Below, piece after piece: positions 5,511-26,421 of a stretch of DNA of 34,317 nucleotides. The notes beneath the pieces were generated by a model. It saw nothing but the letters and a program-made list of their open reading frames with translations, was not told the DNA's origin and did no database searches. Both the position numbers and the translations under genes were made by a program. Positions within the stretch are counted from its first letter, which is position 1. Every line of letters starts with the position of its first letter. Source of the stretch: an uncultured bacterium (GTDB taxonomy: Bacteria > CAYJRR01); assembly GCA_964372275.1 (NCBI GenBank), contig CAYJRR010000041.1:1-34317 (forward strand), in the 5' to 3' direction.

Positions 5511-6704
5511 ATGGGAATTCTCCATCGATTCTGGGGGCCTTGGGCGTCGTTGATGCAGATTCGGCGGCTGCCGGCCTCGGACCGCGAGATCGTCTTCTAT
5601 TCGGAGGGGCGGTCGGATTGGCCGCACTTGGGGCCGATCGTTCGGGAGCTCGCGGCGGGGGGGCGGCGGGTCTGTTACGTGTCCTCCGAGGAGAGTGATC
5701 CGGGGCTTTCGCTCGGGGATCCGAACGTGGTCGGGTTCCACGTCGGGGCCGACTCGGCGCGAACGGCTTTTTTCAAGACGGTCGAGGCGAAGGTCGTGGT
5801 GATGACGATGCCCGACCTGGAGACCTTTTTCCTGAAGCGCTCGGTGCATCCGGCGCACTACGTCTACGTCTTCCACGCCATCGTCTCGAGCCACCGCATC
5901 TACCGGAAGGGGGCGTTCGACGCCTACGACACGGTGCTCGCGGTCGGACCCCACCACGTCGAGGAGATCCGCCGCACCGAGGCGGTCTACGGCTTGAGGC
6001 CCAAGGCGATCGTCGAGCACGGCTGCGCGCGGCTCGACGAAGTGATTCGCGCGGCGGCGGCGCGGCCGGCGTTCGTCCCCTCGCCGGGTCCGGCCAAGAA
6101 GGTGCTGCTCGCGCCGTCGTGGGGGGAGTGCTCCTTTGCCGAGCGGCCGTACGGGGGCGACCTGATCGACCTCCTGCTCCGCGCCGGGCACTCCGTCGTG
6201 CTGCGGCTCCACCCGATGACGGTGCGCCGTCTCCCCAAGCTCGGGCCCTCGATGGAGAGCCGCTTCGCGGGACGACCGGGGTTCCGCGTCGAGACCGACA
6301 TGAGCGCGCAGGAGTCGCTGCAGACCTCCGACCTGATGATCAGCGACTGGTCGGGAGCGGCGTTCGACTACGGGTTCGGTCTCCTGCGCCCGGTGCTGTT
6401 CGTCGACACCCCGACGAAGGTGAACAACCCCGAATGGCAACGGCTGGGGATCGCGCCGCTCGAAGAGAAGGTGCGGCGGGAGATCGGCGACGTTCTCGAT
6501 CCCGGGGAGCTGGCGCGGGCGCCGGAGAAGGTCGCGGCCTTGACCGCCGATCCGACCGCCTTCGCGCAGCGGCTCCGAGCGGCGCGCGAGCGCTGGGTCT
6601 TTCATGTCGGCCGCAGCGCGCCGGTGGCGGCCGCCCACATCGCGGGGCTTTGCAGCCCCGGAGACGAGCGGATGGCACCGCTCCAGGAAGCGAAGGCGAG
6701 ATGA
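5511..6704 (+). CDS. CDP-glycerol glycerophosphotransferase (TagF/TagB-like) family protein; putative phosphonyl transferase
   Basis: VLLAPSW, LRLHP and [15 protein letters not shown]...PVLF family motifs; stop overlaps the pepM start (ATGA). Confidence 0.8.
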
Positions 6705-8362
6705 GCACGAAGAAGAAGACGGCGGCGCTGCGCGAGATCCTCACCGGCAGGGGTGCGGGGAGTTCCCCGCAGGAGCCCGAACGGGCGGACAAGCGCCTGC
6801 GATTCCTGATGGAGGTCCACAACGGGCTCTCCGCCAAGATCGCCGAGGAGGCGGGGTTCGAGGGGTTGTGGGGAAGCGGACTGTCGATCTCCGCCTCGAT
6901 GGGCGTGCGCGACAACAACGAGATGAGCTGGACGCAGGTCCTCGAGCTGCTCGAGTTCGTGACCGACGCGGTGAAGATCCCACTGCTCCTCGACGGCGAC
7001 ACCGGTTACGGCAACTTCAACAACATGCGGCGGCTGGTGCAGAAGCTCGAGGCGCGCGACGTCGCCGGCGTCTGCATCGAGGACAAGCTCTTCCCCAAGA
7101 CCAACAGCTTCCTCGGCGAGAACCAGCCGCTCGCCGACATGGACGAGTTCTGCGGCAAGATCAAGGCGGGGAAGGACGCGCAGAGCGACGACGCCTTCTC
7201 GATCGTCGCCCGCGTCGAGGCGCTGATCGCCGGATGGGGCCTGGCGGAGGCCTTGAAACGCGCCGAGGCCTACCGGCGCGCCGGGGCCGACGCGATCCTG
7301 ATCCACAGCAAGCACTCCAAGCCGGACGAGATCCTCGCCTTCAAGAAGGAGTGGGGGGACCGCAGCCCGGTGGTGATCGTCCCCACCAAGTACTACTCGA
7401 CGCCGACGCAGGTGTTCCGCGACGCCGGGATCGACGTGGTGATCTGGGCCAACCACCTGATGCGCAGCTCGCTCACCGCGATGCAGGAGACGGCGAAGCA
7501 GATCAAGCGCGAGGAGAGCTTGATCGACGTCGAGGGCCGGATCGTCGGCGTCAACGAGGTCTTCCGCCTGCAAGGGGCCGGGGAGCTGGAGGAGGCGGAG
7601 CGCCGCTACCTTCCGGCCAAGCAGGAGTCGCCGCAGGCGCTGATCCTCGCCGCCGGACGCGGCAAGGAGCTGGGGGTCCTCACCGAGGACCGCCCCAAGG
7701 CGATGGTCGAGATCGCCGGCAAGCCGCTCCTGGAGCGGACGGTGGAGACGCTGAACGCGATCGGCATCAACGACATCACCGTCGTGCGCGGCTGGAAGAA
7801 GGAGGCGCTCAAGCTTCCGAACCTGAAGTTCGTCGACAACGACGAGCACGAGACGACGCAGGAGGCGTTCTCGCTCTTCAAGGGGATCGAGAAGCTCGTA
7901 GGGCCCGTGCTGATGGGCTACGGCGACGTGCTGTTCCAAAAGTTCATCCCGATGCACCTGTTCGAGTCGGACGCCGACTTCTGCATCGCGGTCGACTCGG
8001 AGGCGTCGTCCAGCCCCGGCCAGGACCGCTACCGGGACCGCGTCGCCTGCGACCGGCCGTTCCACTGGAACCGCTTCGACCAGAAGGCGTACCTGACGAA
8101 GATGAGCGCCGGTCTCCCCCAGGCCGAAACCCACGGCGAGTGGATCGGGCTCTTGAAGATGTCCGCCGCGGGGCTTGCGCAGCTCAAGTCGATCGGAAAG
8201 GAGATCGCCGGCGGCGCTTCGTTCCGAACGATGCGAATGGCCGACCTGTTCACCGTCCTCCTGGAGCGCGGGAAGAAGGTGGAGGTGGTCTACGTCCGCG
8301 GGCACTGGCTGGACGTCGACGACCTGCACGACGTCGTCGCGGCGGCGGGCCAATACCGATGA
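6701..8362 (+). CDS. pepM: Phosphoenolpyruvate mutase fused to C-terminal nucleotidyltransferase (PntC/LicC-like)
   Basis: Diagnostic EDKxxxxxNS ([10 protein letters not shown]), HNGLSA, DGDTGYG, VPTKY; C-terminal ILAAGRG...DRPKAM and WLDVD. True start ATG 6701. Confidence 0.96.
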
Positions 8363-10599
8363 AAGCGATCGTCATCGCCGCGGGGCTCGGAAGCCGGCTC
8401 CTCCACCTCACCAAGGACCGGCCGAAGTGCACGCTGACGATTCAGGGGGTCTCGCTGCTCGACAATCAGCTCGCCATCTTCCGCGAACTGGGAATCCACG
8501 ACGTCACGATCGTCACCGGCTGGCACGCGGAGATGCTGCAACGTCCCGGGGTGAAGACGGTCTTCAACGACGACTTTCGGAACAACAACATCCTCTTCTC
8601 GCTGATGTACGCGGAGAAGGAGCTCGACGACGAGGTGATCGTCACCTACTCCGACATCCACTACGAAAAGGCGGTGGTCGAGGCGCTGCAGGCGGCGACC
8701 GGCGACTTCCTGGCGGTGGTGGATGCCGACTGGAAGAAGACCTACGTCGGGCGCGCCGACCATCCGGTGGAGCAGGCGGAGAAGGTGGTGATCGCCGGAT
8801 CCGAGATCCGGAAGATCGGAAAACACCTGACCGAGGCCGAGGCGCACGGCGAGTTCATCGGGTTGGTGCGGTTCTCCAAGAAGGGGGCGCTCGCCTTCCG
8901 CGAGGTGTTCGCCGACGTGAAGGCGAAGCATGCCGGAGGTTCGTTCCAGGCGGCGAAGGAGCTGAAGAAGGCCTACCTTACCGACATGCTCCAGGAGCTG
9001 ATCGACCGCGGGCACGCGGTGGCGCCGGTGACGATTCACGGCGGCTGGCGCGAGATCGACACCCTCGAAGATTTCCGGAAGGCGGGGGGCGACGTGCCGT
9101 CGGACATCCGCAGCGGACAGAACTTTCGCGCGATCCTCAACGACCTGAAGCGGCGTCCCGAGGACGCCGGACTGCTCNNNNNNNNNNCCTATTTTTCCGG
9201 TCGGGGGGGGGGCCCCGCGCCGCCGCCCCCCCGCCCCCCACACCCCCCCCCCGCCCCCCCCCCCCCCCTCCCGCGCCGCCCCCGGCGCGCCGCGGCCGAG
9301 CTCGGCGTTCCGCTCGCCGAGATCGAGGCGGTGATCGCCGGGAAGCGCCCCCTCCCCTCCGCGATCGTCGACAAGGCGGTCGCGGCCTGGCCGGTCAGCC
9401 CCCGCGACTTCTACCTCCTCGAGGACGACGCCCCGACCGGGGTGCGGATCTTCCGCGAAGCCGACTCGAAACGGAGCCGGCGCGTCATGCAGCGCGCCGG
9501 GAAGGACTACTACGAGTACCGCGACACCGCGATGAGCGCCGGCTCTCAGTTCCGCCCCGAATGGATCCAGGAGCTTTGCGTCGTCGACGACGACGACCCG
9601 GAGAACCCGGCCGTCCAGTGGAACAACGGTCACTTCCTCCACCAGTTCACCTACTTCGTCGGACCGGTGAACTTCTACTGGCGCGGACCCGATGGACGGA
9701 AGCGCGTCTCGGTGATGGAGACCGGCGGCTCGATGTACATCACCCCGTTCGTGCCGCACTCGTTCGCGTCGCGGCGAAACGAGCGCGGGGAGTTGGGGCT
9801 GATCCTGGCGCTCACCTACGGCAACCTGCTCGGCGGCGAGACGCGGCAGGAGATCGGCGCCCACGGGGTCGAGCTGGCGTCGCGCCTGGCGCTCGACTTT
9901 TCCGCCCCCGGCGCGGCGCGTGGCGCCCTGATCCGCTTTCACCGCGAGGGGTCGAGCCTCACCAAGGCCGAGCTCGCCCGGCGCGCCGACGTGGCGCCGG
10001 CGCGCATCGACGAATTGGAACGGGGAGCAGAGACCGCGTCCGAGGCCGAGATCCGGCGTCTGGCGGCCGCGCTGCGGGTGAACGTTCGCGACCTGCTGCC
10101 GCCGGAGCCGGAGGAGGCGGTGATCGTGCGCCATCGCAAGGACGCGCCGCGCTGGACCTACCCCGAAGCCGGCAGCAAGCCCGAAACGTCCCCCGCCTAC
10201 GAGATGGTGGAGCTGACGCCGGTGCGAAGCCTCCCCTTCTCCAAGGGGCTCGAGGTGAACGTCCTTTCCGGCGGAACCGCGGCCCCCGACCTGCAGGTCG
10301 GACTGCAGCAGTACGTCTACAACGTCGGCTCCACGCCGGTGGCCCTCTCCTGGCGGAACGGCGGCGAGTCGTACGAAACGACGCTTGGCCCGGACGACTC
10401 CGCGTATCTGAAGGCGTGCGTCCCGCACGCCTACCGCGGCGAAGGGGGACGCCTGCTGGTGCTGCGCATCGGCTCGCGGCTGGGAAGCGACGGACTGATG
10501 GAGCTGTCGCGGATCGCGGCAGCGGGTGCGGGCAATTTGGAGCGCATCGTGGGTGATGCAGGACAGTGGTTCGACAAAGCTGGGCGGCGGAATGTGTAG
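8359..10599 (+). CDS. mpnS: Fusion of nucleotidyltransferase (about 8359-9090) and methylphosphonate synthase-type Fe(II) dioxygenase (about 9094-10599), interrupted by an assembly gap
   Basis: N-terminus IAAGLGSRL...DRPK, YLTD, WREIDT; C-terminus [60 protein letters not shown], closely resembling Nitrosopumilus MPnS as I recall it. ATGA overlap with pepM. Confidence 0.88.
9169..9291. other. Scaffold gap (10 N at 9178-9187) with flanking low-complexity C-rich sequence, probably artefactual
   Basis: Ns and C/G homopolymer runs; removing these 123 bp restores KRRPEDAAAELGV. Confidence 0.8.
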
Positions 10600-10605
10600 G
10601 TTCGC

Positions 10606-11751
10606 ATGATCCAAGCGCCCGACTTTTTGGAACCCGCTTTGGCGCGGGGCTTCACCTTCTGGTCGGGTGTCCCCTGCTCGTTCCTCACCCCCTTCATCAA
10701 CTACGTCCTCTCCCGCGACGACCTCGACTACGTCGGGGCGGCGAGTGAAGGGGAGGCGCTGGGGATCGCCGCGGGGGCGCACCTCGCGGGGCGGAAGACG
10801 GTCGTCATCTGCCAGAACTCGGGGCTCGGCAACGCGGTCAATCCGCTGACCTCGCTCAACCACATCTTCCGGATTCCGACCCTCTTCATCACCACCCATC
10901 GCGGCGCGCCGGGTCTCAAGGACGAGCCGCAGCACGCGCTGATGGGGCAGATCACCGGGGAGCTGCTCACCACGATGCAGATCCCGTGGGAGGTCTTTCC
11001 CGACGACGCCGCGGCCGTCGTCCCTGCGCTCGAGCGCGCGGAGCGGTCGATGGCCGAAACCGGGCGTCCGTTCGCCTTCGTCATGAAGAAGGGGACGGTC
11101 GCCGACTATCCCCTCCGCACGAGGGAACGCCGCGCCGTTCCGCCGATGGCCCAACCGTCGGGGACGTTCACCGCCGCGGTCCGGATGACGCGACTCGACG
11201 CCATCCGCGTGGTGCGCGACGCGGCCGGGCCGGACGTGGCGCTGATCGGCACGACCGGGAAGATCGGCCGCGAGCTCTATGCACTGGGCCATAGCCCGAA
11301 CCAGCTCTACGTCGTCGGCTCGATGGGCTGCGCCTCCGGGATCGGACTGGGCCTCCACCTCGGATCGCGCGGAAAGCGGCGGGTGGTCGTCCTCGACGGC
11401 GACGGCGCGGCGCTGATGAAGATGGGCACGATGGCGACGATCGGACACGCCGCCCCCGCCAAGCTCGTCCACGTGATCGTCGACAACGAGGCCCACGAAT
11501 CGACCGGCGGACAGGCGACCGTCTCCTCGTCGATCGACTTCGCGACGGTCGGCAGCGGCTGCGGCTATCGCCATCTGTGGCGAGTCGACTCGGCAGAAGC
11601 GCTCGCCGCGGCGGTCTCGGCGGCGCTCGAGCGCACCGGCCCCATCCTGGTGCACGTGAAGGTGGGGATCGGCTCCGCCCCCGACCTCGGCCGCCCGGCC
11701 CACACCCCGGTCGAGGTGAAGGAGCAGTTCATGAGCTGGTTCGCCCGGTGA
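10606..11751 (+). CDS. aepY: Phosphonopyruvate decarboxylase (ThDP-dependent)
   Basis: GVPCS, QNSGLGNAVNPLTSL, DEPQH, VGSMGCAS, DGDGAALM, HESTGGQ; pepM operon context. Confidence 0.95.
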   Translation: MIQAPDFLEPALARGFTFWSGVPCSFLTPFINYVLSRDDLDYVGAASEGEALGIAAGAHLAGRKTVVICQNSGLGNAVNPLTSLNHIFRIPTLFITTHRGAPGLKDEPQHALMGQITGELLTTMQIPWEVFPDDAAAVVPALERAERSMAETGRPFAFVMKKGTVADYPLRTRERRAVPPMAQPSGTFTAAVRMTRLDAIRVVRDAAGPDVALIGTTGKIGRELYALGHSPNQLYVVGSMGCASGIGLGLHLGSRGKRRVVVLDGDGAALMKMGTMATIGHAAPAKLVHVIVDNEAHESTGGQATVSSSIDFATVGSGCGYRHLWRVDSAEALAAAVSAALERTGPILVHVKVGIGSAPDLGRPAHTPVEVKEQFMSWFAR

Positions 11752-11758
11752 CGCGATC

Positions 11759-12886
11759 TTGAGGAGCTTCCACAATCCCGTGTCGGTGCGCTTCGGCGCC
11801 GGCGCCCTCGGCGAGCTTCGCGACCTCGCGCGCGGGCGGCGCGCCGTCGTGCTCGCTTCCGAGGGGATCGTCCGTCGCGGGACGCTGGCCGCGGTCGAGT
11901 CGGCGCTCGACGTCACCGGCCGCTTCACCTCGATCGCCCCGAACCCGACCCTCCTCGCCTGTTCCCAGGTCGCGGAGCGCCTCGCGGCCTGCGCGGTCGA
12001 GGTGGTGGTGGCGATCGGCGGCGGGAGCGTCCTCGACACCGCCAAGGCGTTCGCCGCCCAGCGGTCGGCCCCGGACGGTTGGCTGTCGGCGCACCTGCGC
12101 GAGGGCGCACCCTTCCCCGCCGACTTTCGCCCGCCTCCGATCCTCGCCGTCCCGACGACGGCCGGCACCGGAAGCGAGGTGACGATGTGGGGGACGGTCT
12201 GGGACGAGAAGACCGGACGCAAGTATTCGATCTCCCACCCGCGCCTCTATCCGGAGGCAGCCCTCGTCGATCCGACCCTGACGCACACCCTTCCGCCGGC
12301 GACGACGGTGGCGACGGCGCTCGACGCCCTGTCGCACGCGATGGAGGCGATCTGGAACAAGGGCTCGAATCCGGTCTCGGACGGCCTCGCCCTGCGCGCG
12401 ATCGAGGTCGTCCCCGACGCGTTGCCGCGGGTCCTGGCGCAGCCGGCGGACGCCGCGGCGCGAGAGGCGCTGGCCGGCGCCGCGCTCCTCGCGGGCCTCG
12501 CCTCGAGCAACACCCGCACGGCGCTCGCCCACTCGATCTCCTACCCGCTCACCTCCGAGCTCGGCGTGCCGCACGGTCTGGCGTGCAGCCTCACCCTGCC
12601 GGCGATCCTGGAGCGTGTCGACGACGAGAAGCCGGCGCGCGCCGCGCTCATCGCCCGGGCGATCGGCCAGCCGACCCCGCGCGCCGCCGCCGAGGCGCTC
12701 CGCTCCACGTTCCGGGCGGCCGGTGTCGGCGAGGAGCTTCGACGCCGGATCGCCGGCGTCGACGCGCTCGCCGGGCTGCGTGGCTCCCTCATCGCCCCGG
12801 GCCGCGCCGAGAACTGCCTGATTGCCGCCGACGCGCCGGCGGCCGCGGAGATCCTGCGCCGGTCGTACGAAGCCCTCTGCGCCTAG
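11759..12886 (+). CDS. Iron-containing alcohol dehydrogenase, probable phosphonoacetaldehyde reductase
   Basis: GGGSVLDTAK, PTTAGTGSEVT, DALSHAMEAIW, TALAHSISYPLT, HGLAC; follows aepY; TTG start. Confidence 0.88.
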   Translation: MRSFHNPVSVRFGAGALGELRDLARGRRAVVLASEGIVRRGTLAAVESALDVTGRFTSIAPNPTLLACSQVAERLAACAVEVVVAIGGGSVLDTAKAFAAQRSAPDGWLSAHLREGAPFPADFRPPPILAVPTTAGTGSEVTMWGTVWDEKTGRKYSISHPRLYPEAALVDPTLTHTLPPATTVATALDALSHAMEAIWNKGSNPVSDGLALRAIEVVPDALPRVLAQPADAAAREALAGAALLAGLASSNTRTALAHSISYPLTSELGVPHGLACSLTLPAILERVDDEKPARAALIARAIGQPTPRAAAEALRSTFRAAGVGEELRRRIAGVDALAGLRGSLIAPGRAENCLIAADAPAAAEILRRSYEALCA

Positions 12887-13782: not shown

Positions 13783-16734
13783 CTATGTAGGAGGCCGCGC
13801 GAGACCGTGGCGTATCGCCCATCCGGTCGCCTCGGCGCGCCCGTGCGCGCCGATCTTCGCGTAGATGTTGGCGATGTGACGCTGAACGGTAGTGAGGCTC
13901 AGGTACAGCCGAGATGCGATCTCCTTGTTCGTTCGCCCCGCCGCCAGAAGGCCCAGGACTTCGGCCTCGCGTCCCGTGAGTCCGCCGGGATGCACACGGT
14001 CACCGCGCGCGGCACGGACGCGCTCCACCCATGTCTGCATCCCGAGACGCGCGAAGCCGGCCTCGGCATCGGCGAGCAGGTCCGAGGCGCGGACCCGCTC
14101 ACGCGGAGGTCGGCCGAGCCGCCATCGCGCCTCGTCGAAATCGGCGAGCGCGCGGACCGGCCGCTGCCCTCGCGCTTCGGCCGCTTCCCGAGCCCGCATG
14201 AATCCGTCGTGGGCTCGGCGCGCATCGCCGGCAAGCGCCGCCATTCGGGCGATCGAGAGCTCGCGGCAGGAGAAGGGCGCGCCCCCCACTCCCTCTCGGC
14301 CCGATTCGATCGCGATCCGGAGGTAGCGCCGCGCCAGTTCCGGATCTGCCAACTCCCAGACAGCGGCCGCGGCGCAGTCTCGACTCACACCGAAGTCAGC
14401 GGTGAGCGGCGGGAGAGACTCGTGAGCGCGAACCATCGCGCTCAATAGCCGCGTCGATTCGGCCCCCTCACCCGCCATCGCGAGTCCGAGGATGACCAGC
14501 CCCGAAAGGACGAGTCCGAACGCCGTCCGTGACGTCTCCGGATCGGTAACGATCCGATGGGGCTCGCCGACCACGGTCGGCCATTCGGCGCCGCCGAGAT
14601 AACCGAGCACGGTTCGCAGTGCGGTCGGCGCGACCACGCGATAGCGGTGCCCGGATCCGAGCCGCTCGGCCACTTCACCCAGCCGTATCGCCGTACGGCG
14701 CGCCGACTCGAGTTCCCCCAGGGCGGCCTGGCTGCATCCGATCACGACGAGCGCGCCGGCTTCTCCCGGGATCGAGCCGTATCGTTCGCAAAGGGCGAGC
14801 ATCTCCTCCATGACCGAGATCGCCGCGTGATAGTCCTGGTGCCGGAAGAAGCAATCGCGCCCCAAGGCGTTGAGCGCGGCGATCCTCGCGGCCGGCGACC
14901 TCCAGCTACGCACACGGCCCAGCGCCTCGTCGGTTTCGGCGCGCGTCCGATGCCACCCGGTGTCGAGCGTCGACGCGAAGTCGTCCTCGCTTGCCTGCGC
15001 GCACAGCACGGCGATCGCCTCCGGATCGACCGGCACGCAGACCCCGACGTGGATCGGCCCTGAAAGGACCGGCTCGATGCGGTCACGGAGCAGCATCAGT
15101 CTCGCCCAAGGCGCGCTCCGCTCGCTGCCGAGCATGGCGAGCCCGCGGTCGACGAGCGGTTCCCACCACCCCCTCGGCGCGCCGCCGGCCTTGAGCGCGC
15201 GCGCGACGGCCGCGAGAAAATCGGCGACCACGGCCGCGGGAGCGCCTGCCTCCTCCAGCGCCCGCCACGCATCCTCGGTCGTCCTCGCCGCGCGCTCGAG
15301 TAGGAGCGCCTCCGCCTCCGCAAGGGCCTGCCCGCGCAACACCTGCGATCGCCGCTCCGCGGTCAGGTACCGGCCGAGGTCGCGGGCCACCGCGAACAGG
15401 GTCGCCGCCCGCTCGTGGGCCGCCCCCGCACGCGCGCGCTCCGCGGCCAGGAGGGCATGGTCGACGCCGCGCTCGGCCCCAGGAAGATCGACCGATGCGT
15501 GGAAGTGGAAAGCGATGTCGCCCGGATCGCCGCCGATTCGCTCGAGGGACTCCGCGATCCGCCGGTGTGCGCGCGCCCGCCGCCATGGATCGAGGCGGTC
15601 GTATATCGTCCGACGCACCAACGCGTGCGAGAAGTGATAGCGCCCGCGGACACCCCGCCGAATCAAGCCGGCCGCCGCCGCCTCGTCGGCGCAGGCGAGA
15701 AGAGACTCGTCTGTGAAGCCGGTCGACCCCTGGAGCACGTTGAAATCGATCTCGCCGACGAGTGCGGCCGCGTCGTGGAGCATCGCAACCGTATCGGCGG
15801 AGAGTCGAGAGAGGCGACGCGCGACGACGGCGCGAACACCCACGGGCAGTCCCAGCTCCCCGAAGCTGCTTTCCGAGGACCAGCGGCCCTCGCGCGCCAC
15901 GATCTTGCGTTCCTCGACGAGGTGGCGGAAGAGCTCGCGGAGGTAGAAGGGGTTCCCATCGGTTTCGGCGAGGAGCGTGCGTGCCAGCGCCTGCGGTACA
16001 TCCCCCCCGCTCTCCAGGGCGAGGTAATCGCGCACTTCCTCTTCGTCGAGGCCGCGGAGCGATAGGATCTGCGCTCCCGCGTCTCGCGCGAGCGTGCCCT
16101 CCAGTTCGGAGATCGCCGCACGGTCGAGACCGATCTCCGGGTCTCGCCACGTACAGAGCACGAACCACCGCCGCCGGGGAACGAACCGGGCGACGTGCCT
16201 CAACAGGCCCAGCGTGTCGCGGTCGGCCCAGTGGAGGTCCTCCAACACGACCAGGACAGGACGATCCGCCGCCACAGCGGACAGCCAACGGGTCACGGCG
16301 TCGTGGAGACGTGCACGCTCCTCGGGCGCTGCGAGCGGGGCGACGGGTGGCAGGTTGGGAAGAGCGCCGCGAAGGTCGGACGATAGCGCGGCCAATGCCG
16401 GCGCGCCGGCGCCCATCTCGCGCACAAGCCGGTCGGGCGGAACGGCACGCAGGTATCGCTCCAGCGACTGCAGCCAAGGTCCGAAGGGCCGGGTGCCGTC
16501 CGATTCGAAACACGCACCGCGAAGGACGCGCGTGCCACGGGACGCCGCCCGCGCAGCGATCTCTTCGGCCAGACGTGTCTTGCCGATCCCCGCCTCGCCC
16601 ACCAGACAGGCTGCCGCCCCACGCCCGTCCTCGGCCAGGCCGAGGAGCGTGAGCAGCCGTTCCAACTCCCGGTTCCTTCCGACGAACCGATCGCCCATCG
16701 CGCGCCGTGAGTCTACCTCCGCCAGTTGGGGCAT
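13783..16734 (-). CDS. Large ATP-binding LuxR-family regulator (ATPase, helical repeats, LuxR HTH)
   Basis: FVGRNREL, GEAGIGKT, LEDLHWAD, GNPFY, C-terminal LTGREAEVL...TNKEIA...TVQRHIANIYAK. Start uncertain (16800, 16734 or 16698). Confidence 0.9.
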   Translation of the reverse strand: MPQLAEVDSRRAMGDRFVGRNRELERLLTLLGLAEDGRGAAACLVGEAGIGKTRLAEEIAARAASRGTRVLRGACFESDGTRPFGPWLQSLERYLRAVPPDRLVREMGAGAPALAALSSDLRGALPNLPPVAPLAAPEERARLHDAVTRWLSAVAADRPVLVVLEDLHWADRDTLGLLRHVARFVPRRRWFVLCTWRDPEIGLDRAAISELEGTLARDAGAQILSLRGLDEEEVRDYLALESGGDVPQALARTLLAETDGNPFYLRELFRHLVEERKIVAREGRWSSESSFGELGLPVGVRAVVARRLSRLSADTVAMLHDAAALVGEIDFNVLQGSTGFTDESLLACADEAAAAGLIRRGVRGRYHFSHALVRRTIYDRLDPWRRARAHRRIAESLERIGGDPGDIAFHFHASVDLPGAERGVDHALLAAERARAGAAHERAATLFAVARDLGRYLTAERRSQVLRGQALAEAEALLLERAARTTEDAWRALEEAGAPAAVVADFLAAVARALKAGGAPRGWWEPLVDRGLAMLGSERSAPWARLMLLRDRIEPVLSGPIHVGVCVPVDPEAIAVLCAQASEDDFASTLDTGWHRTRAETDEALGRVRSWRSPAARIAALNALGRDCFFRHQDYHAAISVMEEMLALCERYGSIPGEAGALVVIGCSQAALGELESARRTAIRLGEVAERLGSGHRYRVVAPTALRTVLGYLGGAEWPTVVGEPHRIVTDPETSRTAFGLVLSGLVILGLAMAGEGAESTRLLSAMVRAHESLPPLTADFGVSRDCAAAAVWELADPELARRYLRIAIESGREGVGGAPFSCRELSIARMAALAGDARRAHDGFMRAREAAEARGQRPVRALADFDEARWRLGRPPRERVRASDLLADAEAGFARLGMQTWVERVRAARGDRVHPGGLTGREAEVLGLLAAGRTNKEIASRLYLSLTTVQRHIANIYAKIGAHGRAEATGWAIRHGLARPPT

Positions 16735-16826
16735 CGACGTCTCACGGACGGACACGTCGAACCCGGCCGGTGCCGACCGCAGACCCGATCGACCCGTCAA
16801 CGGACGCGCCGGCGCCCGGTTTTTCG

Positions 16827-16842
16827 TGGCATGGCCGTTGCT
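16827..16842 (+). promoter_or_regulatory. Putative sigma54 (-24/-12) promoter
   Basis: TGGCATG-GCCG-TTGCT matches TGGCACG-N4-TTGCW with exact spacing, 35 bp upstream of ATG 16878. Confidence 0.65.
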
Positions 16843-16877
16843 GGATGCGCCGACCGGAAGAAAGGCGGAGGCCGTAG

Positions 16878-17504
16878 ATGAACCGCACGATCGCCGTCGC
16901 GCTCGCCGTGCTCGTGGCCTCCTCCGGGGTCGCGCAGGCCGAGCCGTCGTCCTGCGACGGCGGCCCGCCGAACGAGCTCTCGACGCTTCGCGTCGTCACC
17001 GAGGCTCTCGACGAGACGCGCGGGCTGGAACCCACCTGGGAACGGGCAGCGGCGGCGATCGACAAGGTGGTCTTCGTCGCGGGGCTCGCCGTCGGCGCGG
17101 CGTCGATCGCCGGGACCGGCGGGATCGCCGTGCCGATCGCCGCGTCGGCGTTGATCGCCTGGCGCGCCTACCGCTCGATCGCCCGCCTCCACGATCGGAT
17201 CGCCCGCGGCCGGACGCTGCACCCGCTGCGGAGCGCGCCGGCCCGCGCCGACTGGATCGGCCTCCTGTCGAACGTCGTGGGGATCGCCGCCATCGCGGCC
17301 GGCGGGCCCGGCGCGGCGGTCGCCGCCTCGCTCTCCGCGGGACGACTCAGCGTGGCGACGTTGGCGGAGACCGTGCTCCGCGCCTCGGGACTCCAGCAGG
17401 CGGCCCGGGCCACCAGCGCGTTGTCGGCGGTGAACTTCGTCCGCGATCGGTGGTTCCACGGCCGGCGCGGACGGAAGCCGGCGGTCGGCGCGCCGGCACG
17501 TTGA
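16878..17504 (+). CDS. Hypothetical exported or membrane protein
   Basis: GGAGG RBS; signal peptide ending in AQA; two Gly/Ala-rich hydrophobic segments. Confidence 0.7.
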   Translation: MNRTIAVALAVLVASSGVAQAEPSSCDGGPPNELSTLRVVTEALDETRGLEPTWERAAAAIDKVVFVAGLAVGAASIAGTGGIAVPIAASALIAWRAYRSIARLHDRIARGRTLHPLRSAPARADWIGLLSNVVGIAAIAAGGPGAAVAASLSAGRLSVATLAETVLRASGLQQAARATSALSAVNFVRDRWFHGRRGRKPAVGAPAR

Positions 17505-17507
17505 TCG

Positions 17508-18677
17508 TCAGCCCATCGCCTGCTCGAGGTCGGCGATCAGGTCGTCGGCGTGCTCCAGACCGACCGACAGCCGCACCAGCCCGTCGCCGATGCCGATCGC
17601 CCGGCGCTTCTCCGGCTCGACCGAGGCGTGGGTCATGATCGCCGGATGCTCGATCAGCGATTCGAAGCCACCGAGGCTCTCGGCGCAGGTGAACAGCTTG
17701 CACCTCGTCATCAGCCGCCGCGAGGGCTCCAGGCCCCCCTTCACCTCGAACGAGATCATCCCGCCGAATCCGCTCATCTGCCGCGCGGCTGTCGTGTGCT
17801 GCGGATGGCTCGCGAGCCCCGGGTAGATCACCCGCGAGACGTCGCGCCGCTCGGAGAGCCACCGCGCGATCGCCTCCGCGTTCCGCTCGTGACGCTCCAT
17901 CCGGAGCGCGAGCGTCCGCAGGCCGCGCAAGGTGAGGAAGCAGTCCATCGGGGACGGCACCGCGCCGATGGCGTTCTGCAGGAAGCGGAGCCGCTCGGCG
18001 TGGGCGGCGTCGCGCGTCACGACGGCGCCGCCGACGACGTCGGCGTGGCCGTTCAGATACTTCGTCGTGGAGTGCACGACGACGTCGATCCCCAGGTCGA
18101 GCGGCCGCTGGAAGATCGGCGTGGCGAAGGTGTTGTCGACGATCGAGACCAGCCCCTTCACCCGGCAGAACTCCGCCAGCGCGCGGAGGTCGATCACCTT
18201 CAACAGCGGGTTGGTCGGCGTCTCGACCCACACCGCGCGCGTGTTCGGCCGCCACGCGCGCTCCAGGTTCGCCGGGTCGGTGAGGTCGGTGAAGGTGAAC
18301 TGGAAGCCGTCGCGGGAGAGGACCTTGTCGAACAGGCGATAGGTCCCGCCGTAGACGTCGTCGGAGACGATGACGTGATCGCCGGCGCCGAAGAGGTGGA
18401 GCACCGTGGCGGTGGCGGCGCTGCCGGAGGCGAAGGCGAGACCCTTGGCCCCCCCGGCCGGGTCCGCGTCCTCCAGGGCGGCGATCGCGGCCTCGAGCGC
18501 CTCACGGGTGGGGTTCTGCGTCCGCGAGTACTCGTACCCCTTGTGGACCCCCGGCGCCTCCTGCGCGTAGGTCGAGGTGTAGAAGACCGGCGTGGTGACC
18601 GCGCCGGTCACCGGCTCCGGCTTGGATCCGGCGTGAGTGGCGATCGTCTCCAGTCGCGGGGCGCGTGCGTGGGCCAT
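17508..18677 (-). CDS. Cystathionine gamma-lyase/gamma-synthase family PLP enzyme
   Basis: YEYSRTQNPT, FASGSAA, YGGT, ETPTNP, DNTFATP, HSTTKYLNGH (PLP lysine), RLSVGLE. Start 18677 or 18689. Confidence 0.93.
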   Translation of the reverse strand: MAHARAPRLETIATHAGSKPEPVTGAVTTPVFYTSTYAQEAPGVHKGYEYSRTQNPTREALEAAIAALEDADPAGGAKGLAFASGSAATATVLHLFGAGDHVIVSDDVYGGTYRLFDKVLSRDGFQFTFTDLTDPANLERAWRPNTRAVWVETPTNPLLKVIDLRALAEFCRVKGLVSIVDNTFATPIFQRPLDLGIDVVVHSTTKYLNGHADVVGGAVVTRDAAHAERLRFLQNAIGAVPSPMDCFLTLRGLRTLALRMERHERNAEAIARWLSERRDVSRVIYPGLASHPQHTTAARQMSGFGGMISFEVKGGLEPSRRLMTRCKLFTCAESLGGFESLIEHPAIMTHASVEPEKRRAIGIGDGLVRLSVGLEHADDLIADLEQAMG

Positions 18678-18818
18678 CGTCTTGACCATTTCGTCGACCG
18701 GGGAAACTCCCGGACCGCGGACGATAGCAAGCAGGTCTCGATGCGAGCCAGCGTGTAAAAGATTCGCCTCCCCGATGAAGAACGGGGACGCGACCGGGTA
18801 TCCTATCGCTCGTATCGG

Positions 18819-20375
18819 ATGGAAGCATACGGGCGCTATTCGCTGATCCGACGGATCGGCTCCGGGGGAATGGCCGAAGTCTGGAAGGCTCGCGCGGCGG
18901 GTCCGAGCGGCTTCCAGAAGGAGTTTGCGCTCAAGCGCGTGCTTCCTCACCTCACGGAGGATTCCGAGTTCGTCGAGATGTTCATCGACGAGGCCAAGCT
19001 CGTCGCCGGCCTCGTCCATCCGAACATCGTCCAGGTCTTCGATTTCGGCAGCGTCGGAGCGCACGAGTACTACCTCGCGATGGAATACGTCGCCGGCGCC
19101 AACCTCGCGTCGCTGCAAAAGCGACTGGAGGAGGCTCGGGCTCGATGGAGCCCGGACGTGGCCGCCTACATCACGATCGAAGCGTGCCGCGGTCTGGGGT
19201 ACGCACACGAAAAGACCGACACCGACGGCAGGCCGCTCTCCTTGGTGCATCGCGATGTGTCGCCGCAGAACGTGCTCGTCTCCTTCGGCGGCGAGGTGAA
19301 GGTCACCGATTTCGGTATCGCCCGGGCGGCCCACACCACGTCGCGAACCGCGGCCGGACTCGTCCGCGGCAAGCTCGCCTACATGAGCCCGGAGCAGGCC
19401 GCCGGCGAGCCGATCGACGCGCGAAGCGACCTCTTTTCGCTGGGTCTGGTGCTCTATGAGCTGCTTTTTGGCCGCCGACTCTTCCACGGCGGCTCCACCG
19501 AGATCGCGCGGCAGATCCAGGAGTTCACCTCCATCGCGCAGGAGGAGTTGGACGCCCTGCCACCGGCCATTGCCGACGTCCTGGTATCGACGCTCGCGCT
19601 CGATCCGCGGGCGCGCTTCCAACGGGCGGCGGACCTGGAGGCATCGCTGGCCGGCTACCTTGGCGCGCGGTTGGTCGCGGCGCGCCGGGAGCTGTCCGAG
19701 CTGATCTGCCGCCTTTTCGAGGCGGAGCGGGTCCGGAACCGTTCCGACGAGAAGGGACCGGCCGAACGATCCACCGAGATGACGGAGGAGCTCGCGTCGG
19801 AACCGTTCCGCGGTGCGATGGCGATGGCGGCCTCCGGCGAGCCGCATCGGTCGTCCGAGATCGGATCGGACTCGGTGACGTTCCACGTGCCCGGTGTCGT
19901 GATCCGGGAGCAGGCCGGAGGACCGAGCCCGGGTCCGCTTTCCAGGCGACGTGCAGCGGCCGGGGTCGCCGTCGGCGCGGCAGGCGCGTTGTTCGCCGGT
20001 CTCTTCACCCATCGCTGGCTGTCGGAACCCCGTACCCGTCTTCAAGCGACCGAACCGAAGCCGGCACCGACTCCGATTGCGGCCGAGACGACGCCCGGCG
20101 CCCCTTCACAGCGCAGCACGCCGAACCCGTCGACCGGGTACGCGACGCTGGGCGTCGCGGTGCGTCCCTGGGCGGAAGTCTGGATCGACGGAAAGTTGAT
20201 GGCCGCCGAAGCTTCGAACGTCACCTATCGCCTTCGCGCCGGCGTCCACCGCGTCCGCCTGGTCAATCCGGGAAACAACTTCTCCAAGGAGATTCCGGTG
20301 AAGCTCGATCCCGGCGCGAAGGCCACCGTCTCGGCAGACATCCGCACCGGTTCGATCCAGGTGGAGTCGCGATGA
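18819..20375 (+). CDS. Membrane Ser/Thr protein kinase with C-terminal PEGA-like domain
   Basis: IGSGGMAEV, ALK, HRDVSPQN, DFG, YMSPEQ; hydrophobic segment; VRPWAEVWIDG...LRAGVHRVRLVNP. Confidence 0.93.
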   Translation: MEAYGRYSLIRRIGSGGMAEVWKARAAGPSGFQKEFALKRVLPHLTEDSEFVEMFIDEAKLVAGLVHPNIVQVFDFGSVGAHEYYLAMEYVAGANLASLQKRLEEARARWSPDVAAYITIEACRGLGYAHEKTDTDGRPLSLVHRDVSPQNVLVSFGGEVKVTDFGIARAAHTTSRTAAGLVRGKLAYMSPEQAAGEPIDARSDLFSLGLVLYELLFGRRLFHGGSTEIARQIQEFTSIAQEELDALPPAIADVLVSTLALDPRARFQRAADLEASLAGYLGARLVAARRELSELICRLFEAERVRNRSDEKGPAERSTEMTEELASEPFRGAMAMAASGEPHRSSEIGSDSVTFHVPGVVIREQAGGPSPGPLSRRRAAAGVAVGAAGALFAGLFTHRWLSEPRTRLQATEPKPAPTPIAAETTPGAPSQRSTPNPSTGYATLGVAVRPWAEVWIDGKLMAAEASNVTYRLRAGVHRVRLVNPGNNFSKEIPVKLDPGAKATVSADIRTGSIQVESR

Positions 20376-20956
20376 CCACGCCGACCCGACGGTCCTCGCT
20401 CCGCGCCTGGCTCGGGTTCGCCGCGCTGGTCGTTTCCCTTTGGTCGTGCGGTTCGACGTCCGATACCCCCGACTGGAAAGGTCCGCTGGACCAGTACGAG
20501 ACGTGCTTCTTCTCCTGGACGAATATCTCGTGGGAACCCGGTCGATTCGACCTCTATATCGTCAGCTTCGATTCGGAGCTGCTCGAGCAAGGGACCGAGA
20601 TCGCCTACGCCGACGCCGGGATCGGCGCCATCTTCCTTCACCATACGACGCTGGCCCCCGATCCCGTCGAGTATCTCTCCGCGTCGTTTTCGACCATCGG
20701 GCGTTTCCGAACCGAGAGCGATCTTCTTTATTTCGGGTCGCCCGTTGAGTTCGAGGACTCCGTCTCCAAGCAGTTCTTCGACGTCGACGGCGGTAGTCCC
20801 GTCGGCGACGGGGGCGTCGGCACCTTCGACGGATGGTGGCGCACGCCCGAAGACTTGGATACCGAGCTCGATCGGGGAACGGGGAACATCCAGGTTACGA
20901 TCGCCGGAACGGACTTTCAGCTGGGTCTTCTCACGTCGATCGCGTCCTGCAACTAG
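20372..20956 (+). CDS. Hypothetical lipoprotein
   Basis: ATGA overlap with the kinase; signal peptide ending LWSC. Confidence 0.7.
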   Translation: MTTPTRRSSLRAWLGFAALVVSLWSCGSTSDTPDWKGPLDQYETCFFSWTNISWEPGRFDLYIVSFDSELLEQGTEIAYADAGIGAIFLHHTTLAPDPVEYLSASFSTIGRFRTESDLLYFGSPVEFEDSVSKQFFDVDGGSPVGDGGVGTFDGWWRTPEDLDTELDRGTGNIQVTIAGTDFQLGLLTSIASCN

Positions 20957-22821
20957 AAGCGCACCCGGACGCCCGCGGTGAGCAGGTGCTCCGACTCCCG
21001 CAACACGGCCGACTCGAAGGCGAACGGATTCCGCGCCGGTCCTGTTCGCTGAACACGGCGTACCGTTCCCGTGTACCCCGCCGTCACGTCGAGTCGCTCC
21101 GAGCCGGCGCACCCGTGCGTCGCCCGGAAGAGGAACGCACGGCCTGCGGCCGAGCCCCCATCATGTCCACTGGCGTTCGGTGGATCCTCGTCGAGCGTCC
21201 CCCAAACGGTCGTCCCCAGCTCGAGACTCGTCTCCTGCGCACGGGAGCCGAGGTGCCAATCCTGGGACAGTCCGACCGAGATCACGGCATCGGTCCGTCG
21301 ATGGGACGGGAGAAGGCGAAGGGCGGCGCCATCGTCATCGCGAACGTCCTCCGACCGATGGCGTTCCGACTGGATCGACGCGTTCAGGATTGCGAACCGC
21401 GGCGCGCCGTCGGAGTGGCGAATCTTCCACCGGAGCCCACCGACCGCCCGTCCACGCAGGGTGGCACCGCCGTTCACCCGACTGCGCGTTCCGTCCGGAA
21501 GTCGGACGTCGAGCGTCGAAAGTCCGCCGCTGGCGAGGAGCGCTTCGAGCGACAGGAAGAACACCGACCGCCTGGCGCCGACGGCCAACGTCGTACCACC
21601 GACCGAGAAGCCGGAGTCGAACGACGTTCCGCTCGACGCGATCGTCCGGCTCCGCAAGCCCGATACGACGGAGATCCGGCCGTCGATCTCCCAGCGACTC
21701 CACGTCGGACGGGTCGGGTCCGTGGGTGGCGTCGGGATCGCGGATGGCATCGAGGCGGCGGGCGACTCCGGGGCGGCGACGACGGTTGCGGGGCTCCCTT
21801 TCGGAGCGGTCCGAAGCTTGGCCATCGCCCACGTCGCCATCCGATCCGCCGCTTCGACGGTCGTCGGATACACGCTGCTCGCGACGTAGCGACCTCCGCG
21901 CGCCGTCGAGATCAGGATGGCGCGGCTGCCAGCCTCCATGCCACCGCGTTCCGCGACGACCAGCAACCACTCGACATCGAGAAGCCCCGCGAGGTCGGCA
22001 AGCGCTGCAGCATGGCCCGCGGACGGACGTCCCTGCCAGACGAGGCTCGTGAGAGCGCCCTCGACCTCGGCGTCGACGGCAATCGGCAGAGGAATCGACA
22101 GACTCGCGTCGGCCGTCGCCTCGACCGTCTGGCTGACGGACCGGCGACCGCGCGACGACACGACCAGCCGATGCCTGCCGGGGACCAGTCGCAAGGGGAG
22201 CGCGGTTTCCCCCCCGTCGACCGAAAACCGCGCGTCCGAAGGGGCGTCCGTGACCGAAATCGAAACCACCGGGGGCAGACGCGGCCGGAGCTCCTCTACC
22301 AGGGATTGGACAGAGCGCCGGAACTCGGTGAGATCGACCTTCAGCGCCGGATCGAGAACCAACGCCTCGATCACCTCTCGCTCCGCCTGGGAACGATCGT
22401 CGAGCAGCAAGAACACGGTCGCCCGCCACAGGCGAACGCGCACCCGCTCGGCGAGCGTGAAGCCGTCGTGGCCGTCGAGGACCGTCGCATGGGCCGCAAA
22501 GCGATCGAGCGCCAGTGCCAGGCGATTGGCGAAGAAGGCTTCGGTCGCCTCGTGATGCAGGCGCTCGGCCTCGTCCCGAACCGCCGGCGCCACGGCGGAC
22601 TCCCCTTCCGCAACGGTCGGGGCTAGCAGATCCACCAGCTTCTCGGTCGGGACCACGACGATGCCGGGTAGCTGCGAGAGACGCTCTTCGATCACGCGTT
22701 GGAAATACCCGACTCGTGCCGGTTCATCGCCGACGCAGATCAATCCGACGGTGCGAGTCGCCGTACCGCCGGTCGACACAGCGAGGACGGTCGCCGCGAG
22801 GAGGAACGAAGGTTCGATCAC
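20953..22821 (-). CDS. Exported protein with TPR-like helices, PEGA-like domain and beta-strand-rich C-terminus (possible outer-membrane protein)
   Basis: N-terminal signal; ALVLDP; DARFSVDG...LVPGRHRLVV; amphipathic strands ending AGVRVRF. Confidence 0.7.
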   Translation of the reverse strand: MIEPSFLLAATVLAVSTGGTATRTVGLICVGDEPARVGYFQRVIEERLSQLPGIVVVPTEKLVDLLAPTVAEGESAVAPAVRDEAERLHHEATEAFFANRLALALDRFAAHATVLDGHDGFTLAERVRVRLWRATVFLLLDDRSQAEREVIEALVLDPALKVDLTEFRRSVQSLVEELRPRLPPVVSISVTDAPSDARFSVDGGETALPLRLVPGRHRLVVSSRGRRSVSQTVEATADASLSIPLPIAVDAEVEGALTSLVWQGRPSAGHAAALADLAGLLDVEWLLVVAERGGMEAGSRAILISTARGGRYVASSVYPTTVEAADRMATWAMAKLRTAPKGSPATVVAAPESPAASMPSAIPTPPTDPTRPTWSRWEIDGRISVVSGLRSRTIASSGTSFDSGFSVGGTTLAVGARRSVFFLSLEALLASGGLSTLDVRLPDGTRSRVNGGATLRGRAVGGLRWKIRHSDGAPRFAILNASIQSERHRSEDVRDDDGAALRLLPSHRRTDAVISVGLSQDWHLGSRAQETSLELGTTVWGTLDEDPPNASGHDGGSAAGRAFLFRATHGCAGSERLDVTAGYTGTVRRVQRTGPARNPFAFESAVLRESEHLLTAGVRVRF

Positions 22822-22912
22822 AGACCGTTACGTCCGAGTATAGGTCGATCGGCGCCGGTGGAGAAAATGGCCGCTTCCAATCGCTCCGCATCCGCGACTA
22901 CACTGCCGCGGC

Positions 22913-24286: not shown

Positions 24287-24967
24287 CTACCGCCGGCGGC
24301 CGGCGTGTGCGGCCACGAAGGCGTCGACGCTGGGGAACTTCATCATCGGGTTGTTCACCCGCTCGTCCTTGATCGTCGAGACCGAGCGGCTGGCGTAGTT
24401 GTGACCCGGCAGGAGCACCGTCCCCCCGGGGAGCTTGGCCAGCTCCTCCAGGCTGCGATACATCTCCTCGGGACTGCCGCCGGGGAAGTCGGTCCGGCCG
24501 CAGCTCCCGATGAACAGGGTGTCCCCCGAGACGAGCGCCCCCTCCTTCCCGGTCGACTCGAGGAGGAAGCACTGGCTGCCCGGGGTGTGTCCCGGCGTGT
24601 GGAGGAAGCGGATCGACAGGCGGCCGATCGCCAACGTGTCGCCGTGATCGCGCGTCACCACCTCGCTCCGGCCGACGAGCGCCTGCAGGATCGTCTCCTC
24701 GTTCTTGTTCACGTGGAGCTTCGACTTCGTGGTCGTAAGTAGCCGATCGATCTGGTTGGTATGATCGGGATGCCAGTGGGTGACGAGCCCGCCGACGACC
24801 TCCATCCCGTCCCCCTTCGCCTGCTCCACGACGCGGTCGACCTCCCAGGCCGGATCGACCATCACGCACGCCTTCGCCTCGGGGTCGCCGATCAGGTAGA
24901 CGAAGTTGGCCATCGGGCCGACTTCGATCTGGCGCAGGTAGAGCTCGTTCGCGGCGGGGGCCGCCAC
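24287..24967 (-). CDS. MBL-fold metallo-hydrolase (glyoxalase II / persulfide dioxygenase-like)
   Basis: THWHPDH, HTPGHTPGS, SGDTLF, GRTD, PGHNY; GTG start immediately after the CBS stop. Confidence 0.9.
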   Translation of the reverse strand: MAAPAANELYLRQIEVGPMANFVYLIGDPEAKACVMVDPAWEVDRVVEQAKGDGMEVVGGLVTHWHPDHTNQIDRLLTTTKSKLHVNKNEETILQALVGRSEVVTRDHGDTLAIGRLSIRFLHTPGHTPGSQCFLLESTGKEGALVSGDTLFIGSCGRTDFPGGSPEEMYRSLEELAKLPGGTVLLPGHNYASRSVSTIKDERVNNPMMKFPSVDAFVAAHAGRRR

Positions 24968-24968
24968 G

Positions 24969-26387: not shown

Positions 26388-26421
26388 GGGGCGACCGTCT
26401 ACCACGCCCCGAGGCCACAGG

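Follow-up and report, generated by a model that had tools for sequence, protein, structure and literature searches.

A nucleotidyltransferase fused to methylphosphonate synthase in a five-gene phosphonate operon of an uncultured bacterium, a candidate for the methylphosphonate-activating step

The 34,317-nt contig CAYJRR010000041.1 of an uncultured bacterium (assembly GCA_964372275.1), here called the window, by which we mean the whole stretch of DNA analyzed and which is one whole contig of a 4.6-Mb genome in 225 contigs, carries at positions 8359–10599 a gene in which a PntC/LicC-like nucleotidyltransferase (NTase) is fused in frame to a methylphosphonate synthase (MPnS). The NTase–MPnS fusion is a real and recurrent architecture, built from two known families in a combination of which the literature searched gives no description. 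On balance we favor the reading that 8359–10599 encodes one two-enzyme polypeptide of about 705 amino acids (aa) in a five-gene, translationally coupled operon for methylphosphonate (MPn) decoration, in which MPn would be activated as its cytidine monophosphate conjugate, CMP-methylphosphonate (CMP-MPn). The gene is made up as follows.

8359–10599, plus strand: NTase–MPnS fusion, from the matches to both domains
8359–9093, plus strand: LicC/PntC-like NTase domain (called M-type below), fusion residues 1–245, Pfam NTP_transf_3 at 47.1 bits
9094–9105, plus strand: interdomain linker of four residues, from the alignment with homologues, with GTG 9094 as a possible internal start
9106–9177, plus strand: MPnS N-terminal helix region, corresponding to residues 14–34 of PDB entry 6b9s (from the match to it); a few residues next to the contig end are unreliable
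9178–9187, no strand: scaffold gap, a run of 10 N in the letters
9188–9289, no strand: low-complexity, C-rich contig-end junk of 102 bases (66 C, 25 G) that is not genuinely coding
9290–10599, plus strand: remaining MPnS, from comparison with 6b9s and 6b9r, comprising two helix-plus-cupin repeats, the Fe site and the stop codon at 10597–10599

A single stop-free frame leads on the plus strand from ATG 8359 to TAG 10597–10599. Because the DNA is G+C-rich (65–73% in the window) and this frame happens to have no stop from as early as 6604 (1331 codons), the open frame alone is weak evidence, and the case for the fusion is made by homology that spans the joint. The frame has 273 codons ahead of the N gap (P0002) and, in the register set by the scaffold, 469 beyond it (P0003). 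Residues 250–270 (9106–9168) align with residues 14–34 of the solved MPnS 6b9s, with E 4e-4 for this 21-residue stretch, and over its whole length the pre-gap piece matches residues 1–270 of a 702-aa homologue at 75% identity, from which it follows that both domains meet upstream of the gap. An earlier note on this DNA, made from the letters alone, had claimed that no stop separates the two domains and that their junction precedes the gap; both claims hold, with homology on either side of the joint in the one frame from ATG 8359, and with 6b9s-like residues at 9106–9168 followed by a gap only from 9178.

The architecture recurs widely among homologues. As the domain-architecture search suggested in the earlier note now bears out, 40 of the top 120 homologues found with the MPnS part, and 39 of the top 42, combine NTP-transferase, helix-turn-helix (HTH) and cupin domains in proteins of 689–711 aa; aligned homologues of about 702 aa share the joint plus a short conserved linker, and among the 702-aa proteins some are annotated in databases as 'methylphosphonate synthase' or as 'choline kinase/transcriptional regulator'. 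That two separate genes were joined by an artefact of assembly or scaffolding is an explanation we give almost no credence. It could appeal to the gap and junk 85 nt downstream of the joint, to the low depth in the Logan runs (about 4–6) and to the long chance frames of G+C-rich DNA; the joint, however, lies upstream of the gap, and Logan contigs from two runs span 8412–9147 and 8794–9168 with 0 differences to the window, an agreement that attests to reproducible assembly and not to independent biology, as both runs are of one study that is possibly the window's own source. These contigs, identical across the joint up to 9168, contain none of the stops or frameshifts near 9090 that would have separated the genes, and the same joint is found in 40 database protein clusters and in 10 species-representative genomes.

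The open reading frame 8359–10599 itself, which the earlier note had taken as written, stands as a continuous frame and as a fusion but not in its length, since it carries about 40 spurious codons from the junk after the gap. Positions 9188–9289 translate as a Pro-rich string ending in a garbled KRRP motif, where an intact KRRP already precedes the gap, and because these post-gap codons are junk the frame across the gap is no evidence in itself. Set against homologues, the pre-gap piece is reliable as far as the Ala that follows 'KRRPED', and the post-gap piece from 'AAELGV' onward; judging from this alignment the two contig ends should abut or overlap, to give a true protein of about 705 aa and not the 746 codons as written. 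The Pro-rich stretch was also considered as a genuine linker and rejected, homologues being without such an insert. Among the Logan contigs of the two runs none lies over 9169–9289 and none joins across the gap. The junk is homopolymer-like and would mislead gene callers. At the other side of the joint, the Ala-Gly-Gly-Asp/Glu that closes the NTase domain (window 9060–9096) is encoded by the purine-rich stretch GGAAGGCGGGGGG just 5' of GTG 9094, which may be a remnant or a working ribosome-binding site; the NTase of a split form of the pair (L031, described below) ends in the same Ala-Gly-Gly-Asp/Glu motif.

Judged by its sequence, the C-terminal half is of the MPnS type and not of the HEPD type. 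For this half, the Pfam and NCBIfam scans returned HTH and cupin models only and no match to an MPnS-specific family, and because no curated MPnS family matched, the MPnS call rests on solved structures. P0003 matches MPnS 6b9s over 6b9s residues 27–455 with E 3e-125 (422 bits), class II HEPD 6b9r with E 4e-82 and HppE with about 1e-6. P0003 and 6b9s are numbered alike across the active site, and the metal-site residues H148, Q152 and H190, which we take to be the Fe(II) ligands of MPnS, are present at the 6b9s-aligned positions. F162 and I184 are found in both the window and 6b9s, the counterparts in HEPD 6b9r being Y163 and G184. Born et al. 2017 reportedly found that the second-sphere residues Phe162 and Ile184 hold the Gln ligand and decide for MPn, with Tyr and Gly in class II HEPD. 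Across 70 MPnS loci, each from a species-representative genome, the active-site pattern is HQFIH in 61, HQYGH in 4, HQYIH in 3 and incomplete in 2.

The N-terminal half looks like a catalytically complete, active PntC/LicC-like NTase, both from its sequence and from a predicted structure. Residues 1–245 match Pfam NTP_transf_3 and NTP_transferase, and the best sequence match is LicC 1jyk (E 1.7e-13 with the single sequence, 7e-25 with a profile). An AlphaFold2 (AF2) model of these residues (pLDDT 95.8, pTM 0.93) has as its top Foldseek match PntC-AEPT 6pd2 (E 8e-18, TM 0.80), followed by LicC 1jyk (TM 0.78); the AF2 model of a full-length fused homologue (P0004, 40 rows) reached pLDDT 71 and pTM 0.44 with the MPnS half poorly modeled, and we draw nothing from it on how the domains pack. 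For PntC, PMC6697681 gives the consensus GXG(T/S)RX4-8PK with Arg15 and Lys25, and reports that Ala at Arg15, Lys25 or Lys153 of Tde-PntC leaves <10% activity and that Lys153 contacts the phosphonate. The window has this consensus as G9-L-G11-S12-R13, eight residues and P22-K23, where R13 and K23 are invariant in 28/28 MPnS-linked rows and in 80/80 rows from metagenomes; K155, which aligns with Lys153 of Tde-PntC 6pd1 in the comparison of the profile with the PDB, is Lys in 27/28 and 80/80 of these. All 108 rows of the M-type family keep G9, R13, K23, D99, W125, Y129, E165, F166, G168, Y206, W230, E232, D234 and D238, and 107 of the 108 keep Y97 and K155. PMC6697681 further describes the amine of 2-aminoethylphosphonate (AEP) as bound by Tde Glu104 and Glu196, with Asp105 and Asp192 as the acidic counterparts in LicC. 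At the position of Glu104 the window has Tyr97, as do 27/28 MPnS-linked NTases, the Glu196 position lying outside the alignments; this replacement fits a substrate without an amine, and on account of it we class the domain not with the AEP-type PntC enzymes but as one that would work like them on an amine-free substrate. By analogy with the nearest solved relatives, the nucleotide is most likely cytidine triphosphate (CTP).

The fusion gene is one of five that lie head to tail, with ATGA overlaps at the first two junctions and gaps of 6 and 7 nt at the next two. Its companions are the following.

5511–6704, plus strand: TagF-like CDP-alcohol phosphotransferase homologue, Pfam Glyphos_transf (PF04464) at 29.3 bits vs 22.1
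6701–8362, plus strand: phosphoenolpyruvate (PEP) mutase, PepM, with a C-terminal NTase of a second type ('P-type'), TIGR02320 at 378.7 bits vs 319.55
10606–11751, plus strand: phosphonopyruvate decarboxylase, Ppd, TIGR03297 at 428.1 bits vs 312.5
11759–12886, plus strand: Fe-dependent alcohol dehydrogenase (Fe-ADH), the probable phosphonoacetaldehyde reductase making 2-hydroxyethylphosphonate (HEP), Pfam Fe-ADH at 129 bits

The PepM motif EDKXXXXXNS is present in 6701–8362, and domain scans of the window genes found no aminotransferase in the operon. For the TagF-like protein, the Pfam match covers profile positions 144–291 of 367 only, and neither an NCBIfam match nor a PDB sequence match was obtained; tblastn finds homologues of it in 19 of the 70 MPnS loci. 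The NTase fused to PepM (NTP_transf_3 over residues 320–419 of the frame translated from 6680; window 7625–8359) was compared with its equivalents in six further loci (L003, L004, L005, L031, L034 and L066): in all seven the consensus Arg is replaced by Glu and the residue aligned with Tde-PntC Lys153 is not a Lys, and there is a deletion around F196. Since the PepM-fused NTase departs from the Arg/Lys consensus, the MPnS-fused NTase is the canonical one of the two; its PepM-fused counterpart, to go by these residues, may use another mechanism or substrate, or may be inactive.

In the pathway that we propose, PepM would convert PEP to phosphonopyruvate, Ppd would decarboxylate this to phosphonoacetaldehyde and the Fe-ADH would reduce the aldehyde to HEP, which the MPnS domain would cleave with Fe(II) and O2 to MPn. 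The NTase domain would then react MPn with a nucleoside triphosphate, most likely CTP, to give CMP-MPn, from which the TagF-like protein would pass the methylphosphonyl group on to a glycan or polymer hydroxyl with release of CMP. The fusion would keep the small, diffusible MPn beside its activating enzyme. The first four steps are proposed on the grounds of family membership and the known pathway (PMC12619172 and PMC9381506). MPn as NTase substrate, CTP as nucleotide and the role of the TagF-like protein are what we infer, the first from gene linkage and from the loss of the amine-binding Glu. The bifunctional enzyme put forward in the earlier note is upheld in so far as one half is of the MPnS type and the other a catalytically complete PntC/LicC-like NTase by all appearances, and stays a proposal as regards the use of MPn and CTP.

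The two domains might also work in their order along the chain, with CMP-HEP formed by the NTase and then cleaved directly to CMP-MPn by the MPnS domain. The NTase does precede MPnS in the polypeptide, and later steps of the Streptomyces fosfomycin pathway proceed on CMP-bound HEP. We nonetheless think this order very improbable: the MPnS half is close to the Nitrosopumilus maritimus enzyme (E 3e-125) and has no large insertion, split forms of the pair commonly have either gene order (6 with the NTase upstream, 10 downstream), and N. maritimus MPnS converts free HEP in vitro (PMC12619172).

The fusion and the looser forms of the same linkage were then followed through the 70 MPnS loci. The joint is read through in frame in 10 of them (L003–L008, L010, L037, L062 and L070), with frameshifts elsewhere in the gene in L006, L007, L008 and L062; two further loci, L009 and L011, are cut by contig ends. 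Nine of the fused loci (L003–L008, L037, L062 and L070) are labeled Chloroflexota, Limnocylindria or 'Chloroflexia', and L010 is labeled Planctomycetota. One of the ten, L004, is from a genome flagged as unpublished, and nothing concluded here depends on that locus by itself. An NTase of the M-type, meaning one for which the MPnS-fused domain gives a better score than does the PepM-fused domain, is present in 38/70 loci: fused to MPnS in 10, separate within 100 nt in 15 (5 upstream and 10 downstream, 3 of the latter convergent), at 231 nt in 1, at 1.0–1.35 kb in 11 (mostly Nitrosopumilales) and at 6.2 kb in 1. L031 (Myxococcota) and L034 (Acidobacteriota) have split forms of the same NTase–MPnS pair, in which the stop codon of the NTase gene overlaps the start of the MPnS gene. 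The same NTase also adjoins stand-alone mpnS in Nitrosopumilaceae, Myxococcota, Acidobacteriota, Gammaproteobacteria and DPANN-type archaea, and because this subfamily stands beside stand-alone mpnS elsewhere, the fusion joins genes that are otherwise neighbors. Within an archaeal family (151 genomes, the family of a Nitrosopumilus genome) MPnS occurs in 8 genomes, and an NTase of at least 290 bits lies within 2.6 kb in 8/8 of these, with 0/143 of the others reaching 290 bits; the 151 genomes are kin and not independent, and the comparison is therefore not to be read as a statistical test. Among 40 other genomes, relatives of the window within the same domain only, matches to the NTase alone occur in 2 and MPnS in none.

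As to descent, a quick IQ-TREE tree of MPnS (61 rows, with the short or broken L009, L011, L036, L040, L062, L066 and L069–L072 left out) groups the window with seven Chloroflexota fusions in a clade (SH-aLRT 100) from which the window branches off first, and the same fused clade is recovered with support 99 in a FastTree tree of the NTase (115 rows). The fused L010 and the split L031 join this clade at 93, unresolved; the MPnS tree, which has an open fork here, neither shows nor excludes a single origin of the fusion. Elsewhere in the MPnS tree, L017, from a 'Patescibacteria group bacterium' metagenome-assembled genome (MAG), is a sister row of L014 from a Thaumarchaeota MAG, with branch lengths of 0.037 and 0.023; the two loci are nearly identical and have the same gene layout, and the L017 contig is probably mis-binned.

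A number of observations weigh against an NTase dedicated to MPn, and against the operon as we read it. Concerning the operon, the best family for the Fe-ADH (11759–12886), TIGR03405, is matched below its cut-off (337.6 vs 423.7 bits), and HEP, for which a cytidylyltransferase is known (Fom1, cited in PMC6697681), is in the pathway as well. Concerning the polypeptide, a stand-alone close relative (P0005) begins precisely at the joint position (GTG 9094), and by this alignment a separate MPnS could also arise from an internal start. Concerning the linkage, 29/70 MPnS loci, including most Pelagibacteraceae loci, are without an M-type NTase in the available DNA, and the NTase matches in 3 further loci are weak and ambiguous; conversely, archaeal-family NTases of 246–279 bits occur in 4 genomes without MPnS, one of them 1.1 kb from PepM and three in genomes without a PepM-grade match. 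A search of metagenome contigs with the NTase profile gave 80 loci at 42–50% identity to the window domain, many flanked by 2–6 kb on both sides, of which only 3 have MPnS (L089, L115 and L137); in 53/80 an XRE-type HTH precedes the NTase in frame, in proteins of about 370 aa, and the neighbors include a PhnD-like phosphonate-binding gene in 50, PhnC in 39 and PhnE in 44. As the invariant residues are shared by all 108 members, sequence cannot separate an 'MPn' pocket from others. Finally, neither a mention of CMP-methylphosphonate nor biochemical evidence for it was found in the literature searched (supplements not covered).

Several of these points meet in the explanation that the fusion is real and its NTase activates HEP, to CMP-HEP as Fom1 does, or another phosphonate or phospho-alcohol, MPn being activated elsewhere or not at all. 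HEP is made by the same operon, a PepM-fused HEP cytidylyltransferase is known (PMC6697681), the M-family NTase 1.1 kb from PepM stands in a genome where MPnS was not found, and every invariant residue is also present in family members without MPnS. To this may be added L028:2985–5061, from a Marine Group I thaumarchaeote, where a gene with the HEPD-like pattern HQYGH has an M-type NTase 41 nt away in convergent orientation, a case of the NTase accompanying what is, from its sequence, a probable non-MPnS relative. Against this, fusion and tight adjacency concern MPnS and not the HEP-forming dehydrogenase, the top-scoring archaeal NTases occur with MPnS only (8/8 vs 0/143), and the second, PepM-fused NTase of the operon could serve HEP. 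We regard another substrate as unlikely, though it is the alternative to be taken most seriously, and retain activation of MPn as the favored reading.

The NTase family is tied to phosphonates in more than one way. In the FastTree tree, which has many open forks, the HTH/phnCDE group forms one derived clade of 64 rows and the basal branches of the family are MPnS-linked. The HTH–NTase proteins, no description of which was found in the literature searched, may from their domains and neighbors be a phosphonate-responsive regulator-enzyme; examples are L081:5632–6750 as well as L085, L093, L104, L075 and others in L073–L152, and the NTase upstream of mpnS in the Pelagibacteraceae locus L052:8691–9770 is of the HTH–NTase kind. 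The XRE-type HTH in 53/80 metagenome relatives and the PhnD-like neighbor in 50/80 could be taken to mean that the NTase-like domain of the fusion, too, is a ligand-binding or regulatory module and no enzyme, as its HTH-fused relatives might be. Arg13, Lys23, Lys155, Asp99 and the E232/D234 motif are, however, invariant or nearly so in 108 members, which would be needless for a sensor without turnover, and we hold a purely regulatory role to be quite improbable and the NTase to be an enzyme. A third NTase clade of 16 rows includes loci that adjoin a zinc-finger NTase and polysaccharide genes, and one with a B12-radical-SAM gene: at L148:482–2299, L132:4116–5934 and L076:2623–4442 a member of the clade lies directly 3' of a second NTase, of about 345 aa and with an N-terminal C2H2-like zinc finger, in surroundings of a flippase and a sugar dehydrogenase (L076) or of a major facilitator superfamily (MFS) transporter and a B12-binding radical SAM gene (L148). 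A wider proposal, which we offer tentatively, is that the NTase family is the missing CMP-MPn synthase from marine Nitrosopumilus to uncultured Chloroflexota, with the fusion marking the cognate substrate, and that the abundant marine HTH/phnCDE offshoot, whose invariant active site is that of the MPnS-fused domain, is a regulator-enzyme that senses or salvages imported MPn in SAR11-like bacteria; if true, MPn production and MPn use would be tied to one protein family.

The operon is flanked by genes for regulators, kinases and sulfur amino-acid enzymes that have no relation to phosphonates. Downstream, at 13783–24286, are a large AAA/LuxR-type regulator (13783–16995, minus strand) and Ser/Thr protein kinase genes at 18759–20375 and 22844–24286, along with a cystathionine-type pyridoxal phosphate (PLP) enzyme (17508–18740), a metallo-beta-lactamase-fold protein (24287–24997) and a PALP-CBS enzyme (24969–26453), with no evident link to the phosphonate genes.

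MPn esters in dissolved organic matter are a proposed methane source in oxygenated water. MPnS accounts for the synthesis of MPn, and no enzyme attaching MPn to macromolecules was found in the literature searched. An MPnS fused to a complete PntC-like NTase is a concrete candidate for the MPn-activating step, and together with the TagF-like gene in the same operon it leads to a full, testable five-gene pathway, in genomes (Chloroflexota/Limnocylindria and Planctomycetota) outside the marine groups on which most MPnS work has been done. Both Ppm–NTase fusions and the nucleotidyl activation of phosphonates are established (PMC6697681), two NTases per cluster, one of them Ppm-fused, are a common pattern (preprint 10.1101/2021.04.07.438883), and PMC9381506 takes transferase and 'choline kinase' genes in the vicinity of mpnS as hints of MPn esters; for the NTase–MPnS fusion itself no description was found in the literature searched (supplements not covered). 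The gain is a sharper hypothesis and no new principle, nucleotidyl activation being known and NTases near mpnS having been noted in passing before.

Among characterized proteins, the stand-alone MPnS of Nitrosopumilus maritimus (PDB 6B9S/6B9T) is the closest counterpart of the C-terminal half, sharing with the window H148, Q152, F162, I184 and H190 as well as a gene neighborhood of PepM, Ppd, a dehydrogenase and an M-type NTase; the solved chain has 457 residues, whereas the window chain has about 249 residues of NTase and linker in front. Class II HEPD of Streptomyces albus (PDB 6B9R) has the same fold and H/Q/H metal site as the window and differs from it in Y163/G184 for F162/I184 and in the weaker match (E 4e-82). 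For the N-terminal half, LicC of S. pneumoniae (PDB 1JYK/1JYL), a CTP:phosphocholine cytidylyltransferase, is the best sequence match and similar in fold (TM 0.78), with an alignment that is good over the first ~113 positions only; unlike the window protein it is stand-alone, and it acts on phosphocholine. Ppm–nucleotidyltransferase fusions (Fom1, and the PF12804/PF01467 fusions of Rice et al. 2019, PMC6697681) are represented in the window by the PepM gene, which is such a fusion, and nucleotidyl activation is the logic of phosphonate tailoring in general. That inventory is confined to Ppm fusions, and 'methylphosphonate' is absent from its main text; to these the window adds MPnS as a partner and the canonical NTase subtype. 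The nearest parallel in design is Tde1415, the PntC-AEPT of Treponema denticola (PDB 6PD1/6PD2), with which the window shares the fold, the GXG(T/S)RX4-8PK motif and the Lys153 equivalent at ~21% identity. The partner there is an aminotransferase, the substrate is AEP and Glu104 stands where the window has Tyr97, yet the logic is the same in both: an activating NTase is fused to the enzyme that makes its substrate, which for the window would be MPn.

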